The position numbers and the translations under genes are program-made. Source: Gammaproteobacteria bacterium (GTDB lineage Bacteria; Pseudomonadota; Gammaproteobacteria; JAJPIJ01). Taken from it: 64,000 nt of DNA. This document shows, in pieces, positions 2,746 through 61,767 of the stretch. The stretch lies in NCBI GenBank assembly GCA_022071965.1, contig JAJVIQ010000019.1:136793-200792 (forward strand). Direction: 5' to 3'. Numbering within the stretch: the stretch's first letter is position 1; the number at the start of each line of letters is the position of its first letter. The notes below the pieces were generated by a model. It was not told the origin of the DNA and ran no database searches. It saw only the letters and a program-made list of their open reading frames with translations.

Positions 2746-2830
2746 AGTTTCCTCCGCCGTCGTGTGGACAGAGATCTCTTGCCGTGATGCCCGCAACCCC
2801 GGCATCCGGCGGGGGATCGGTACGGTGGTG

Positions 2831-2858
2831 TTGCCGCCTTTGGCCTTCCTTTATACTG
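2831..2858 (+). promoter_or_regulatory. candidate sigma70 promoter for tRNA-Leu (TTGCCG, 16-nt spacer, TATACT)
   Basis: TTGCCG at 2831-2836 and TATACT at 2853-2858, about 20 nt upstream of the tRNA 5' end. Found by eye only. Confidence 0.3.
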
Positions 2859-2877
2859 GCCGCCCTCCCGACATCGC

Positions 2878-2965
2878 GCCGAGATGGCGGAACCGGCAGA
2901 CGCAGCGGACTCAAAATCCGCCGGGGTAACCCCCCGTGAGGGTTCGACTCCCTCTCTCGGCACCA
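2878..2965 (+). tRNA. leuX-like: tRNA-Leu(CAA), class II with long variable arm, CCA encoded
   Basis: GCCGAGATGGCGGAACCGGCAGACGCAGCGGACTCAAAATCCGCC...GGTTCGACTCCCTCTCTCGGCACCA. The acceptor stem GCCGAGA pairs with TCTCGGC, and the anticodon loop CUCAAAA gives anticodon CAA. It closely resembles E. coli leuX. Confidence 0.9.
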
Positions 2966-2966
2966 A
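2953..2966. repeat. attL-like copy of 14-bp direct repeat TCTCTCGGCACCAA (tRNA-Leu 3' end)
   Basis: Exact 14-mer shared with 10763..10776. This copy is the 3' end of the tRNA. Confidence 0.55.
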
Positions 2967-3157
2967 GTCCCCGTCCCCACGCCGCTCCAGCCGTCTCAGT
3001 CCGTCTACGTATCTAGCTGGAACTCAAGGTGTTTTTCGCGGTCTTACGCTCTACGCGTCCAAAATCGTCTCCATGAATCTCGTGTTTCGTGGGGGCATTT
3101 TTGGGGGCACCTGCCCCGCGAAATGGGGGCACATTTTTGCTGGGAGTCGAGTCCGAA

Positions 3158-4030
3158 ATGCCGTTGACAGTAGCCGCGATTAACCACGCCAGACCACGTG
3201 AGAAGGTCTACAAGCTCGCAGATGGTGGAGGCCTGTATCTTGAGGTCCATCCAACGGGCGCACGCTACTGGCGCTTGAAGTATCGCCACGCGAACAAAGA
3301 GCGTCGACTAGCAATTGGCGTATATCCCGATGTAACGCTCGCCGAGGCACGTACGGCGCGAGACAGTGCGCGCAAGCTCATCAAGAGCGGAAATGACCCG
3401 GTCGCGGTGAAGCGCGAGGTGCGCCGCAAAACCGAGTGCGAGGCGGCCAACACGTTCGAAATCATCGCCCGCGAATGGGTCGAGCACCAACGCGCACGCT
3501 GGACACCTGACCACGCAAGCACCGTCCTCCGGACCCTTGAGGCCAACGTGTTCCCAACCTTGGGGGCAAAGCCAATCACCAACATCACGGCGCCCGAACT
3601 GCTGGCGGCCATCCGCTCGGTTGAACGCCGCGATGCGCTGGAGGTTGCCTCCCGTGTGGCTCAGCGCTGCGGCGCGGTGTTCCGTTTCGCAATAGCGACG
3701 GGACCTACAACCCCGCTGCAGACCTTCGTGGCGCATTGAAGACAAGGAAGGTTACCCACCACCCCGCGCTCATGGCCAAGGACCTGCCGGAGTTCCTGGA
3801 TAACCTGGCTGCTTACGATGGCGATGAGCAGACTAAGAACGCCTTGAAACTCCTGATGCTAACCTTCGTCCGCACCGGTGAGCTTCGTGCCGCCGAGTGG
3901 AGCGAGTTCGACCTTGAGGGCGCGACTTGGCGCATACCGGCCGAGCGTATGAAGATGCGCGCACCTCACATCGTGCCGCTGTCGAAGCAGGCCGTCGAGG
4001 TCTTGAAGGCGCAGCAGGCACTTACCGGCC
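3158..4030 (+). pseudogene. int: P4-type tyrosine integrase, frameshifted and C-terminally truncated
   Basis: The N-terminus MPLTVAAINHARPREKVYKLADGGGLYLEVHPTGARYWRLKYR...RLAIGVYPDVTLAEARTARDSARKLIKSGNDP is the classic P4-integrase arm-binding domain. The reading frame breaks near 3712 at ...VFRFAIATG. The protein continues in the next frame (TYNPAADLRGALKTRKV...ELRAAEWSEFDLEGATWRIPAERMKMRAPHIVPLSKQAVEVL). Homology then ends near 4030, before the catalytic R..H..Y region. Confidence 0.75.
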
Positions 4031-4642: not shown

Positions 4643-7600
4643 CATCCGCCGTTGCTGTCTCGGAGATCTGCGCCCCTACGTCACTTGCACGTTCCGCAAG
4701 CACGTACTGCCAGTAGCCGTAGGTTCCATCAGCATTCACTGCATTGGCCCACCGATGCGCCGCCTGCGCTTTCACGTCTTTCAGCGGGTCATACCCCTTC
4801 GTTTCAAATATCACAAACCGGTTGGATGTACCCTGCAGCCGGATGATGAAGTCGGGTATGTAGTCATGTGCCTGACCATCATGGAGATAAGGAATGGCAA
4901 ACCCGAGGTTGGCGTTCTTTACGAATGCTGAGACGTTGTCGTGAGTATCTATTGCGACAATAGCAGCCTGTTCCAGGCCGGAGTCGGCAACCATGAGGTT
5001 TAAATGACTCTTTTCAACTTGAACCACATTCTTGCTGGTCCAGAAATCGACTTCCGACGTGGTGCCCGGCCCGCGGTGCTTTTCAAACGACGGCAATTCC
5101 GCCGCCTCCCCTTGCATAACGTCCGGTTTAATGGCGGCGGTCAGTCGCTCGATGATCCAACCATAATAGGGGGATAGAAAGGCATCGAAGATGCTCGCGG
5201 GAGACAATGGCTTAACTCGCTCACGTAAATAACGGTCAACAATCTTCGCGATCTGCGGAAAAAGGGCGTGAGCTGGCGCTTCGCAGGAGGGTTGGGCGCA
5301 ATATTCTCGCGTCAGATCGCGCGCCATCTCAAACACCAGTGCCTGTAGGCGCTGGCCCGATCGGTAGGGATTGAGGTTCACGCTGACGATCTTTCCGGGG
5401 CCAAGCAACGAGTAGCGACCTTTGTTGCTTGGCACCCCGGCCTTCATTTCAACTTGTGGCGGGATTCTTACCGGATCCAGATCCAACGTTGCCACAGAGT
5501 TCCAATCAACGACAATACGATTAAGGATTTTTTGCCTGTATCCCATTACGCGAGGAAATTGAATTTCAAACTGCTTTTTCTGCGGAAGTGCATGGACGTG
5601 GAATCGCTTAGCGCGCGGTTGAGTAGGCGCACCCTGATTGGCCTTGAACGGAATGACCTCAAACGGCACTCCAAATATCTTCGCAACTTCCTCGCTGAGT
5701 AGCCCCGTGGTCTCGTCAATTTCGTAACTAGAACGCCGTAGCCCGCGACCCACCACCTGTTCGCACAGCAACTGCGACATGAATGGTCGCAGTCCGACGA
5801 TGTGAGTGACTGTGTTGCAGTCCCACCCTTCCGTCAGCATGCCGACGCTGACGATGCAGCGTATATCCCGACCCGGCGGGTGCGACGGGCGGCCGAGTTC
5901 TTTTGCCAGATCCTCGAAGCCATCGGGGTAAATTGGCCGCCCCGACCGATCGTTTGGCCAATTTACTTTGCCCACGGTGTCAAGCGTCAGCCGCATCCAA
6001 CGCATCTCGTCTGACTTCGCTTCATCGCTGTCTGTCTCGTGCACAACTTTGGTATCGACGCGAATTGTATGCGTCAACACGTCAGTGTTGCGTAGTTGCT
6101 CCAGCCGCGCCGACGCGATACCGGTTGGCGGTTTATCCTCTGCGAGCCACTCGTAGACTACCTTCGCGATTCGGGTGTTCTTGCAGACCAGAATAAACAC
6201 CGGCGGTCTTGGATCGTCAGTATTCCGGAGCCATTCCTTACGGGTCTGCTCCCACAACCCCCCCAACATGACTATCGGTGTGTATGCATACTGCAAGATT
6301 GCATCAGGTCTTGGATTGGCGCGCCGTCCACCACGCTGAGCAGCCGTCAGTTGAGGCAAAATCCAATGCCAGATGTTGAAGTACCCAGGAATCTCCTTGC
6401 CTGCCGTATCTCGCACCGCCAATTGCGGGATTTTCACCAGTCCCGACTCAATCGCGTCCGTCAACCCGAAATCGCTCACCACCCAAGGGAAGGTGCGATT
6501 GGTGTCCTGTCCGACCCGTCCGAGGTAATAGGGTGTCGCCGATAGATCCACACAGAAATTGATTCCTCGCAGCTTGTGAATACGGTCCAACCCGTCAATC
6601 CAGACAGTAGCTTCCTTGAAGAATTCGTCGATTTCCTCTTCATCGAATAAATCTTCCTCGCCCTCATCTGGCTCCGGTTTGCGGATGCGGTAGGCGTGAT
6701 GCGCCTCATCATTCAGCACGAGGATGTTTTTCTTTCCCCCAACCTCGCGCCCGAGTATTCGGTGAACGAGGGCCGTGTCGCTTTCAACGTACTTGCGCGA
6801 TTCGATGATTACTTTCTTCAGATTGCCGTCTATGTCGCACTCTTCCTCGATAATCTCAATCATTCCTGCATTAACCTGCCGCCGTAAATCCTCCAACGTC
6901 AGGTAGCGCGTGCCACGTGCCGTCGTCGACTTTTCTCCGATGGCGATCTTTTCCTTCACCCGTACCGGCTTGCCTGCCTTGGCAACCTTGGCGCTTGTCC
7001 CGCCAACTTGCACGGACTTCGGCTCGAATACGTGCCAGTTTGTGACTAGCACGCGCCCCTGCGTCATGAGCGGCATAAGGTGCTCAGGAATAAGGTCGCG
7101 GGTGCGGTAAAGACTCGCCTCGCCCGCCTCGGGATTCAACTCCGCCAAGCGGTTGCGGATGGTGACGTTGGGACAGACCACCAGCACCACATCGGAGAAC
7201 CGCCCGTCACTGCGATTGTTGAGCTTGTTAAGTATGCTCCACACGACCAACATGCCCATGACGGTCGTCTTGCCACTGCCAGTTGCCATCTTGCAGGCGT
7301 AGCGACGGAAGGCGCGATAGCCCTCGGCTCGGCGTTCCTCACTCATTTCATCCAGTGGCACATCGATACCTTGCAGGAAGTCCGACCGCGCCTCGGTGAG
7401 GAAAATAATCGTCTCCGCGGCTTCAAGCTGCGCGAAAAACAAACGATGCTTGCGTCCGTCGCGTCTCCAGTATTGAAGCAATTCTAATGAGGTGCGACTG
7501 ACACCGGGCCACTGCTGATCTCGCCACTCGCTGATCTGTTTTCGGACCTGATTTACCAACGTTAGATCTTGCCACTGCCCGCGCGCCTCATGTTCGCCAG

Positions 7601-57315: not shown

Positions 57316-58359
<1,044 letters not shown>

Positions 58360-58409
58360 TGGCGGGACGCACTGACGCGGTCCGTGCGGGACAGGGAGCC
58401 ACGACGCCG

Positions 58410-58952
58410 GCCACGACACGCCGTGAATACATCCATTTACGCTCCGCGGCCGCGCCCCTGCAGAAGAGGAACCTCGGAGGCGCGGCGACTTGCGGTTCAC
58501 GTGCCACGCCGGGGGCCGTGACGCCCGCCGCGACACGCTGTGAATACATCCATGTACGCTCCGCGGCCGCATCCCTGCGGCCGAGGGTCGTGGCGCGCAT
58601 CACGGCCCCCTGCCCGAACGTCCTCGATCGCGTTGAGCCCACTTGCGGCAGGGCTGCGGCGATCGTGTGCGGACGGGACTCCTCATCTGCTCCGAGAGCG
58701 CTGACGCGGTCGCTGACCGGTTTCGACGGTGCCGGGCCGAGGGGCCTGCGGAGTGCGGCGACCCTCGGCCGCAGGGATGCGGCCGCGGAGCCTACAGGGA
58801 CGTATCTACGGCGTGTCGCGGCAGTCCGCAGGCCCCTCGGCTCTCGACTTGCGCGACGAGCTCGGCGGTTGGGGGTGCGAGCGGAGACGACCCTATGCGG
58901 CAGGGATGCCGCATTCGAGCGTGCATGGACGTATTCACAGCGTGGCGTCGCC
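58410..58952. repeat. cluster of four roughly 65-bp REP/MITE-like repeats in the arrangement + + - -
   Basis: Copies at about 58410-58463 and 58526-58590 (direct), and 58759-58822 and 58888-58952 (inverted). The shared core is ACGC(T/C)GTGAATACATCCATGTACGCTCCGCGGCCGCATCCCTGCGGCCGAGGGTCG. The ORFs called across this region are spurious. Confidence 0.7.
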
Positions 58953-58993
58953 GTTCGTACCTCCACCCGCTGCCGGAGCCTCCCGTGAGCGGC

Positions 58994-59431
58994 AGGCGCG
59001 CGGCGGCGGGCGCCGCGGATTTCGTCTGGCCGGTGCGCGTCTACTACGAGGACACCGACGCCGGCGGCGTGGTCTACCACGCCAACTACCTGAAATTCAT
59101 GGAAAGAGCGCGGACCGAGTGGCTGCGCTCCCTGGGCTGGCAGCAGGACCGCCTGCTCGCGGAGGAGCGCGTGGTGTTCGCCGTGCGGCACCTGGCGGTC
59201 GACTATCTCAGGCCGGCACGGTTTAATGACGCGCTGAATGTACGCTCGCGCGTGGGGAGGCTCGGTTCAGCGAGCATTGAATTCGAACAGGACATCGTGC
59301 GCGCCGACTGCGACCTGCTGTGCCGCGGCGTCGTGGTCGTGGCCTGCATCGATACCGATGCATTCCGGCCTCGCGCCATTCCGGATCCGATGTACGACGC
59401 CATGAAGAGGTTCCGAAAACATGCAGACTGA
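58994..59431 (+). CDS. ybgC: Tol-Pal-associated acyl-CoA thioesterase
   Basis: The GTG start gives ...FVWPVRVYYEDTDAGGVVYHANYLKFMERARTEWL (4HBT fold). It is first in the ybgC-tolQRAB-pal order. Confidence 0.8.
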   Translation, partial: RRAAAGAADFVWPVRVYYEDTDAGGVVYHANYLKFMERARTEWLRSLGWQQDRLLAEERVVFAVRHLAVDYLRPARFNDALNVRSRVGRLGSASIEFEQDIVRADCDLLCRGVVVVACIDTDAFRPRAIPDPMYDAMKRFRKHAD

Positions 59432-60618: not shown

Positions 60619-61767
60619 GTGCCACTCAACCGCGCGCAGAAATTCCAGGCGTTCCTGTTCGCCGTGGCGATCCACTTGGCGGCGCTGTTCCTGCTGCTGT
60701 TCAGTATCGACTTCAGCGAGCCGCCGTCGCTCACGCCGCCAACCACCGCGCCGATCGTGGAGGCGGTAGCCGTGGATCAGACGCAGATCGAGGCCGAGGT
60801 GAAGAAGCTGCGCGAGGCCGAACGCAGGAAGCGCGAGGCCGAGGAGCAGCGGCAGCAGGAGCTCGAAAGCAAGGCCGAGGAGGCGCGCAGGCAGCGTGAG
60901 GCCGAGGAGCAGCGCCTGAGGCAGGTGCGGGAAGAGCAGAGACTGGCCGAGGAGACCCGCAAGGAGACCGAGGAGGCGCGCAAGCGCGCCGAGCTCGAGA
61001 AACAGGTGCAGGAAGACGAGCGCCGCAAGGCCGAGGAGCAGAAGCGGCTGGCGATCGAGGAAACGCAGAAGGCCGAGGAGGAGCGGCTGAAGGCCGAGGC
61101 GGAGAAGAAGAAGCTCGAGAACGAAAAGCGCCTCGTCCTGGCGGAGAAACAGAAGGCCGAGGAGGAGCGCAAGCGCGTCGAAGAGGAGAAACGGCGCATC
61201 GAGGAGGAGAAGCGCCAGCGCGAGGAGGAAAGGAAACGGGCCGAGGAAGAACGGCAGAAGGCCGAAGAGGAGAAGAAGAGGGTCGAGGAGGAGCGGCAGA
61301 AGGCCGAGGCGGAGAAAAAGCGCATCGAGGAGGAGAAACAGAAGGCGCTGGAAGAGAGGCAGCGGCAGGAGGAGGCGGCGCGCAAGGCGCGCGAGGAGGC
61401 CGAGGAGGCGCGGCGCCAGAGGGAACTCCAGGCAGCGATGCTGGCCGAAGAGGAGGCGCAGCGGCTCAACAACCTGATCCGTGACGCGCTCAGCGAGTAC
61501 ACGGCGATATGGCAGAGCAGAATTACGTCCAACTTCACCAACCCGCGCCCGGGCGGCGGCCTGCGCTGCACCCTGAAGGTGAAGCTGACCACCAACGGCG
61601 AGGTGACGGACGTACGCGTGGATCCATCCAGCGGCGATCCGGCCTTCGACCGCCAGGCTGAACTGGCCGTGCTGAAGTCCTCGCCGCTGCCGGTCCCGAC
61701 CGATCCGCAGGTTCAGAAGGGCCTGGCCGGCAAGATACTTTCCATCACTTTCAAACCCGAGGGGTAA
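60619..61767 (+). CDS. tolA: Tol-Pal system protein TolA (repetitive K/E/R/A-rich helical domain II)
   Basis: An N-terminal TM helix is followed by about 230 aa of EEERK/KAEEE repeats and a C-terminal TolA-III-like domain. The start codon is uncertain. Confidence 0.8.
   Translation: MPLNRAQKFQAFLFAVAIHLAALFLLLFSIDFSEPPSLTPPTTAPIVEAVAVDQTQIEAEVKKLREAERRKREAEEQRQQELESKAEEARRQREAEEQRLRQVREEQRLAEETRKETEEARKRAELEKQVQEDERRKAEEQKRLAIEETQKAEEERLKAEAEKKKLENEKRLVLAEKQKAEEERKRVEEEKRRIEEEKRQREEERKRAEEERQKAEEEKKRVEEERQKAEAEKKRIEEEKQKALEERQRQEEAARKAREEAEEARRQRELQAAMLAEEEAQRLNNLIRDALSEYTAIWQSRITSNFTNPRPGGGLRCTLKVKLTTNGEVTDVRVDPSSGDPAFDRQAELAVLKSSPLPVPTDPQVQKGLAGKILSITFKPEG

Follow-up and report, generated by a model that had tools for sequence, protein, structure and literature searches.

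The intergenic region between ruvB and ybgC in a 64,000-nt stretch of contig JAJVIQ010000019.1 from a Gammaproteobacteria bacterium (the whole stretch being referred to here as the window) is bounded by the stop codon of ruvB at 58359 and the GTG start of ybgC at 58985 and holds four copies of a repeat, designated units A to D. A preliminary description of this DNA had placed four repeats in the same interval, with cores oriented + + - -, and both their placement and their orientation are confirmed. A degenerate 22-nt core pattern, allowing up to three mismatches, has only four sites in the 64 kb (none expected from 100 shuffles), and a covariance model built from homologues elsewhere (R1) yields exactly four matches in the window, corresponding to the same four units, in agreement with the earlier statement that the family is absent from the rest of the window. 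Units B, C, and D were part of the R1 training alignment, and unit A was not. In a repeat search, A and B likewise emerge as a direct pair (87 nt, 80%) and B and C as an inverted one (109 nt, 79%), together with the inverted pairs B/D and A/C. The covariance model sets the limits of the cluster at 58387-58974, the 58410-58952 first proposed being too narrow, and replaces the suggested repeating unit of ~65 bp with one of ~110 nt, consisting of a stem, a core, and a stem. Unit strands are given here, following R1, as those of the strand bearing GGA loops (the GGA strand), on which the array reads - - + +.

The folded unit is a hairpin of ~110 nt in which a long P1 stem (27 to ~31 bp), copy-specific in sequence, encloses a conserved ~54-nt three-way junction formed by P1, P3, and P2. 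In units B, C, and D the ~54-nt core lies between mutually complementary arms of ~27 nt that differ from copy to copy, and each of these units, taken singly, folds far better than shuffled sequences (z -4.7 to -8). Across 85 aligned units (alignment A2), 89% of cells are paired, compared to 57% in shuffled alignments and 33-43% with the partners displaced by 1-3 columns, and compensatory double changes occur at all 27 P1 pairs, usually involving all four Watson-Crick types, and at eight of the nine P3 pairs. The P2 hairpin was fixed by the search pattern, and its covariation was read from model-found copies not matching that pattern, in which the UAC/GUA stem changes to CCC/GGG, CAC/GUG, UCC/GGA, or CUC/GAG (formally counted, 15 changes of UA to CG and 11 of AU to CG). 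When P1 is extended outward from the core its mean length is 31 bp, and 81 of 88 units measure 113-116 nt with 30-nt arms. The arms are the least conserved part of the unit, with a mean identity of 0.34 between loci, and the junction is the most conserved; arms also differ between copies within one genome, and P3 is often identical among such copies.

Outside the stems, near-invariance is confined to both hairpin loops and a few junction nucleotides. The three bases of the P3 loop GGA are present in 85, 84, and 83 of the 85 units (98-100%), even though this loop lies outside the search pattern, and among 38 copies outside the ascertainment pattern the GGA of both loops, the GAGC, and the GCGUG are each kept in at least 90%. 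On the GGA strand the loops read CANGGAYG (P3) and UACAKGGAYGUA (P2), so that both hairpins present an ANGGAY loop closed by C-G. The two loop GGAs are spaced 26 nt apart, which falls inside the range that a CsrA dimer is said to bridge in work by Mercante and colleagues from 2009. Both loops coincide with the RsmE/CsrA consensus A/U-CANGGANG-U/A (Schubert 2007) and with the CsrA consensus from systematic evolution of ligands by exponential enrichment, RUACARGGAUGU (Dubey 2005), in the form in which the two are quoted in PMC6849547.

The stems are also strand-asymmetric. Counted on the GGA strand, P1 mismatches comprise 107 G·U against 46 A·C (74 against 28 in an independent count), and in 18 inverted pairs the G·U:A·C counts on each unit's own GGA strand are 36:8 for left members and 28:16 for right members. 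The GGA strand folds better in 34 of the 36 units of these pairs, as it does in units B, C, and D of the window. Since both members of a pair show the excess on their own strand, a mutation bias linked to replication or transcription cannot explain the asymmetry, which is a property of the element and points to selection acting on one single strand, either RNA or, in principle, single-stranded DNA (ssDNA). The RNA reading is favored mainly because the favored strand also carries the CsrA-type loops. It is held here with high confidence that the unit folds into a conserved structure and that selection acts on one of its strands.

Inverted pairs show, in addition, a fixed polarity. Outside the window lineage, where the gaps span 47-200 nt, the 5' ends of the GGA strands face each other in 16 of 17 pairs (the exception being L108), and the - - + + order of the window follows the same 5'-facing polarity. 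These pairs sit just downstream of genes in co-directional or convergent contexts, none lying between divergent genes. Their fixed polarity is the strongest argument that some DNA-level process may act on the element.

Larger segments are also found between inverted units. In L008 (2271-3823), a HigB/HigA pair assigned on sequence motifs only (open reading frames, ORFs, at 2432-2767 and 2777-3466) is bounded precisely by two inverted units with identical core and P3 and unrelated arms, an arrangement that resembles repeat-flanked cargo. Inverted units in (-,+) order flank a 446-aa ORF resembling a KAP-family P-loop NTPase in L097 (5095-7166; ORF at 5493-6833) and a 403-aa ORF resembling an alpha/beta-hydrolase in L057 (6382-7593), again as judged by motifs only. 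The possibility that genes enclosed in this manner are transposases was considered and rejected, the motifs identifying HigBA, a hydrolase-like protein, and a KAP NTPase instead.

The distribution of the family was explored with a scan based on the invariant core positions over one genome per species, in which the listed matches amount to 120 loci and represent a lower bound. The core pattern occurs at no fewer than 120 loci, all of them, among the matches listed, in Gammaproteobacteria or unclassified metagenome-assembled genomes; carriers among these matches include Marinobacter, Cellvibrio, Microbulbifer, Rheinheimera, Alishewanella, Oceanisphaera, Lysobacter, Thermomonas, Aquisalimonas, Nitrococcus, and Kalamiella. 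All listed loci share a layout of variable arm, core, conserved-loop hairpin, and complementary arm. The same core at at least 120 unrelated loci identifies the repeat as a dispersed extragenic palindromic family, as the preliminary description had anticipated, and not as a one-off local duplication. All copies are extragenic, typically intergenic at 20-130 nt from a gene end, and some genomes have copies on two contigs (L041/L053 and L010/L024). The neighboring genes are ordinary and unrelated, with 177 Pfam families over 148 ORFs and none enriched. The core pattern has no match in 2.9 million viral contigs, and a unit-like query retrieves two Yersinia records among 72,556 plasmids, which rules out a phage- or plasmid-borne element; complete Escherichia coli genomes hold no copy. 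No description of the family was found in the literature on CsrA with repetitive extragenic palindromic (REP) sequences or miniature inverted-repeat transposable elements (MITEs), or in that on conservation of REPINs and REP-associated tyrosine transposases (RAYTs). The repeat is structured and widespread, with a junction kept from Yersinia to Lysobacter, and is new as such as far as these searches reach.

When the array region (at E <= 10) and 23 loci were compared with all Rfam families, the only relative was RF02770 (Ysr224, Yersinia sRNA 224), at scores below threshold: 19.7-23.1 bits for the window units and 26.5-34.7 bits for eight other loci, with none of 15 loci reaching the gathering threshold of 70 bits. 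Matches to miRNA precursors in the same scan are meaningless and stem from the long hairpins. In Ysr224, the 3' half of the consensus (aCGCcGuaAAuaCauCCaUGUAgGCuCGagccGCGCCaUCCcuGGCGCggA) is the same core, and units B, C, and D, together with units from Kalamiella, Marinobacter, Haliea, and Thermomonas, match it consistently in one orientation, the scores remaining at 20-35 bits since the model is specific to Yersinia in its 5' half. The structure given by Rfam differs in having no long P1 and in being annotated on the strand opposite to the GGA strand, and no function or CsrA link is recorded for it. Ysr224, listed in Rfam as an sRNA, is a local form of this far more widespread repeat, which Rfam therefore covers only in part.

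Features of the ruvB-ybgC region in the window, and repeat units at the same locus in relatives (strands of units are those of the GGA strand)
Feature	Position	Strand	Description
ruvB	57316..58359	+	347-aa ORF, upstream flank; 96%-identical relatives are named RuvB and have RuvB Pfam domains
Unit A	58387..58500	-	decayed copy; R1 38.2 bits, E = 9e-9
Unit B	58504..58617	-	intact; R1 93.8 bits
B/C spacer	58618..58731		114 nt; kept in relatives L121, L123, and L127
Unit C	58732..58845	+	intact, same strand as ruvB and ybgC; R1 95 bits
Unit D	58861..58974	+	intact; R1 85.1 bits
ybgC-type 4HBT thioesterase	58985..59431	+	GTG start; downstream flank, first gene of ybgC-tolQRA
Locus in L126		+	one unit
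Locus in L123/L124 and L127		-,+	two units
Locus in L121		-,-,-,+	four units, one of them from a tandem duplication of B and its spacer
Locus in window		-,-,+,+	four units

The four units of the window differ in their state of preservation. Unit A has a recognizable core in which the P2 loop AUGGAU is kept, the P3 loop (GGGGCG) no longer has its GGA, and P1 has lost most of its pairs, and its folding is no better than that of shuffled sequence on either strand. In unit B, the 27-nt inverted arms of P1 (~58508-58534 and 58587-58613) are 85% complementary, the loop GGAs have their TCC complements at 58549-58551 (P2) and 58572-58574 (P3), and the minus strand folds at -81.4 kcal/mol (z = -6.2) compared to -72.1 kcal/mol for the plus strand. 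Unit C has P1 arms at 58736-58762 and 58815-58841 that are 93% complementary, a P3 loop CAGGGATG at 58772-58779 (GGA at 58775-58777), a P2 loop GGA at 58798-58800, and a fold of -88.2 kcal/mol (z = -6.9). Unit D has P1 arms and a P3 stem (TGCGGCA/TGCCGCA) of its own, with loop GGAs at 58904-58906 (P3) and 58927-58929 (P2), and ends 1 nt before the Shine-Dalgarno GGAG of ybgC (58975-58978); its plus strand folds better than the minus (-65.3 against -50.0 kcal/mol) because its stem uses G·U pairs. Within the B/C spacer, positions 58644-58676 (TGCGGCAGGGCTGCGGCG...) resemble the P3 side of unit D as a direct repeat (73% over 33 nt to 58896-58928); this degenerate fragment, which the covariance model does not detect at E <= 10, is possibly the remnant of a fifth unit.

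The exact RuvB sequence of the window is absent from the records. Comparison with relatives reached via RuvB homologues, 92-96% identical to the RuvB of the window, reveals that copy number at this locus is fluid, with 1, 2, 2, 4, and 4 units among them. The orthologue of unit B in L121 is 97% identical, and unit C has orthologues in L121 (93%), L123 (83%), and L127. Besides the window, only contig L125 has unit D, which is absent from L121, L123/L124, L126, and L127, and comparison with the empty sites in L121, L123, and L127 shows no recognizable target-site duplication around it. The existence of B and C orthologues in relatives and the restriction of D therefore indicate that tandem and inverted duplication of an older unit, together with the gain of D, built up the array. 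The P3 variant of the window lineage is found only at the ruvB-ybgC locus in metagenomic relatives.

CsrA/RsmA is a main post-transcriptional regulator in Gammaproteobacteria, and the antagonists known for it are limited to a few small RNAs dedicated to that role. The reading proposed here, tentatively and with slightly less than even confidence, is that the unit may be a REP-like structured repeat working as a CsrA-binding RNA module. Two GGA loops 26 nt apart on one strand would provide the dual-site geometry for one CsrA/RsmA dimer; transcribed within a neighboring mRNA, the GGA strand would capture CsrA, either titrating the protein or putting the flanking message under CsrA control, and the long P1 stem would form a stable block, resistant to nucleases or cleavable by RNase III. 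At the locus, one ancestral unit was amplified by tandem and inverted duplication, with unit D gained in addition, and units C and D are GGA-sense on the strand running from ruvB to ybgC, with D abutting the ybgC ribosome-binding site. The family itself, its fold and covariation, the strand asymmetry, the identity of the loop motif, and the changes in copy number are observed; transcription, CsrA binding, and any regulatory effect are predicted. In its broadest form, in which duplicating RNA modules, each trapping one CsrA dimer, would be scattered class-wide through gammaproteobacterial untranslated regions, the proposal is doubtful.

The unit shares with the Csr/Rsm sponges (CsrB, CsrC, RsmX/Y/Z) the C-G-closed ANGGAN loops matching the CsrA/RsmE consensus, and an increase in hairpin number by internal insertion in some copies. 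It differs from them in having only two sites per unit, in its lack of Rfam similarity, and in occurring as dozens of dispersed copies set in a long stem, where the sponges have one to three genes of their own. The GacA/UvrY-type promoter and the intrinsic terminator of a sponge gene are likewise missing: the window intergenic region contains no promoter- or terminator-like site, GacA boxes not having been specifically sought, promoters are not enriched beside 83 units, and U-tracts are absent. A second point of comparison is TwoAYGGAY, a motif of two AYGGAY-loop hairpins that Weinberg et al. (2010, PMC2864571) reported from sources including gammaproteobacteria. Loops of this type, AUGGAU or AUGGAC, occur in about half of the units, but the motif includes neither the long enclosing stem nor the conserved junction.

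Several observations weigh against a CsrA-binding role. Single units in co-directional contexts show no orientation preference, with 16 GGA-sense against 26 antisense on a crude ORF-based gene call, and no promoter-like signal was detected in the window intergenic region, in the gaps of inverted pairs, or as an enrichment on either side of 83 units, so that many copies would be transcribed in the wrong sense. G·T wobbles also stabilize ssDNA hairpins, and the strand asymmetry therefore fits a DNA-level function equally well. The conservation of the core (GAGC, GUAUUCAC-R-GCGUG, ACCGU) exceeds the needs of CsrA binding, the Ysr224 annotation lies on the opposite strand, and covariance searches returned no Csr/Rsm or TwoAYGGAY family of Rfam, either in the window region (E <= 10) or in eight loci (E <= 0.5 for TwoAYGGAY). 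Lastly, the near-perfect and fast-changing stems suggest a DNA-level, palindrome-correcting process, and the fixed polarity of inverted pairs is unexplained by the CsrA model.

In the broadest form of the proposal, the free CsrA pool would be coupled to the synthesis and decay of bulk mRNA, a gene could enter CsrA control by gaining a unit, and the units could supply the missing CsrA/RsmA antagonists of groups such as the Xanthomonadales, in which no CsrB/Rsm-type RNA is known. More generally, CsrA-binding units would form a genome-wide layer of CsrA titration and give genes a simple route for joining or leaving the regulon. At the locus described here, the polymorphic unit D sits directly against the ribosome-binding site of ybgC, the leader gene of the tol-pal operon. 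Even without CsrA, an unusual REP relative that combines a conserved junction, a free stem, and a fixed polarity would offer a clean system for the study of palindrome maintenance.

The main rival to the CsrA module is a REP-like ssDNA element with an unseen enzyme: selfish DNA of the REP/REPIN type, the ssDNA hairpin of which would be recognized, cut, and copied by an HUH/Y1 enzyme (RAYT) or another host-encoded enzyme, the CsrA-like loops being incidental. This is considered rather unlikely, although much of the above bears in its favor. The units are extragenic, palindromic, and GC-rich, they occur in mixed-orientation clusters like bacterial interspersed mosaic elements (BIMEs), and local gain and loss is fast, as seen in the change in copy number under 92-96% RuvB identity. 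On the core strand, the P3 hairpin is preceded, at a distance of 3 nt on its 5' side, by a GTAG/GTAC motif, much as a GTAG-like motif precedes the hairpin of REPs, and inverted doublets have a preferred polarity in both families, a 16 to 1 bias being expected if the enzyme reads one strand. The excess of G·T over A·C would arise equally from selection on a DNA hairpin, and the identical P3 of same-genome copies with different arms, as well as the accessory genes between inverted units (HigBA in L008, the KAP NTPase in L097), can be counted on the same side. On the other hand, no RAYT/IS200-like gene was found by tblastn in the window and 124 loci, covering ~1 Mb around more than 150 units, in a search of limited sensitivity, and no transposase figures among the top 25 Pfam families (all those matched by at least two ORFs) of the 148 neighboring ORFs. 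The units also depart from REPs in several respects. They are three to four times longer, at ~110 nt, than the 20-40-nt palindromes headed by GTAG that define a REP, and the last base of the motif varies (G 43, C 35, and A 7 of 85) in covariation with its pairing partner. REPs are species-specific, whereas this core is kept across orders; E. coli complete genomes have no copy, and no RAYT was found near any of the ~150 units. Furthermore, in REPINs the stem that is recognized is the conserved part and the loop is looser, whereas here the junction and loops are conserved and the stem is variable.

The preliminary description had characterized the repeats as REP- or MITE-like. A dispersed extragenic palindrome with a copy number that shifts among relatives is indeed observed, and the units resemble MITEs such as ERIC/IRU, Correia, and YPAL in their size of ~100-130 nt, their intergenic location, their long hairpin, and their presumable co-transcription with neighboring genes. 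The defining features of a MITE are nevertheless absent: the arms are not conserved terminal inverted repeats, as attested by their low identity, unit D shows no target-site duplication, and no parent insertion sequence is known.

E. coli REPs have been described as separating or stabilizing neighboring cistrons, and a structural RNA with no CsrA involvement could act here in the same way, with a ~30-bp duplex serving, in either orientation, as an RNase III site or as a block to 3'-exonucleases. The near-perfect and very stable stems would suit this role, as would the location of units 20-130 nt downstream of gene ends, the absence of inverted pairs between divergent genes, and the lack of orientation preference; yet it leaves unexplained both the strand asymmetry of wobble pairs and a near-invariant 54-nt junction with two GGA loops beside a free stem, and it appears improbable. 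A role as a classic intrinsic terminator, which the preliminary description had mentioned for such arrays, does not hold, since no U-tract follows the stem: in the first 12 nt beyond P1, runs of at least four T are seen in none of 85 units when the GGA strand is read and in 3 of 85 when the other strand is, and no terminator site lies inside the cluster.

It is also very unlikely that each unit is an independent small-RNA gene of the Ysr224 kind, acting in trans from its own promoter. Rfam lists the Yersinia relative as a small RNA detected by RNA-seq, multiple copies of Ysr224 with different expression profiles have been reported in Yersinia ruckeri (PMC12112432), and Ysr224 is among the sRNA families most frequently annotated (PMC9029176), its only appearance in the literature being as a Yersinia sRNA of this multi-copy, often annotated kind. 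Against this, the window intergenic region contains no sigma-70-like promoter or terminator, the flanks of 83 units show no promoter enrichment, no U-tract is present, and the units lie directly after gene ends.

Pairing between copies, proposed earlier for A with D and for B with C, stands for the inner pair: the minimum free energy fold of the whole 631-nt region (-389.5 kcal/mol compared to -315 kcal/mol for shuffled sequences, z = -12) pairs B with C over long range, but A and D are only 53% identical, and hence only B and C can pair well at that distance. A local duplication in which nested inverted copies form a single ~540-bp stem-loop or cruciform, terminating transcription between ruvB and ybgC, draws on this fold and on the restriction of the window P3 variant to the ruvB-ybgC locus, but it is highly improbable and largely refuted by singleton homologues, given that relatives keep the element with one unit (L126) or two, that most members of the family are singletons in which the single unit is the conserved structure, with a stem of its own that covaries at all 27 positions, that ruvB and ybgC are co-oriented with no U-tract between them, and that the same core recurs at the other loci.

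Some copies depart from the common layout. Insertions of 45-80 nt in the P3 loop are present in L045 (5913-6077), L047 (6255-6410), L061 (660-822), L086 (6726-6895), L115 (5695-5860 and 6059-6224), and L112 (3456-3649), and add further hairpins of the ACAUGGAUGU type with ANGGAN loops, such as CCCACAUGGAUGUGGG in L115; those inserted in L045 and L061 have the opposite orientation, which places GGA hairpins on both strands. In the junction, A2 columns 67 and 85 (58793 and 58811 in unit C) covary as C-G (43), G·A (31), U-A (5), and G-C (4), suggesting a pair that tolerates a sheared G·A, and define two subfamilies, GAGCC...CACGG and GAGCG...CACAG, both of which are found in the window. Head-to-tail arrays occur in low-GC genomes, with four units at a period of ~180 nt in L014 (3103-3754) and three at ~153 nt in L120 (2149-2513); the P3 stem of these copies is reduced to A/T runs, and stem composition thus follows genome GC while the loops stay fixed.

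The GC-rich repeats also affect gene calling. Long spurious ORFs cross the array on both strands in the window (58359-58988 and 58229-59191) and in L121 (11044-11832), and the public record of L121 calls a 262-aa gene over the repeats, devoid of any Pfam hit; these ORFs are a gene-calling artefact due to the high GC content of the repeats. The ybgC orthologue is called in L121 and L123 as a 148-aa protein with PF03061/PF13279, and its start is aligned among relatives. Further downstream, the long Glu/Lys/Ala-rich repetitive center of tolA (60619-61767) is of low complexity and gives rise to long shadow ORFs on the opposite strand, which is ordinary for TolA.

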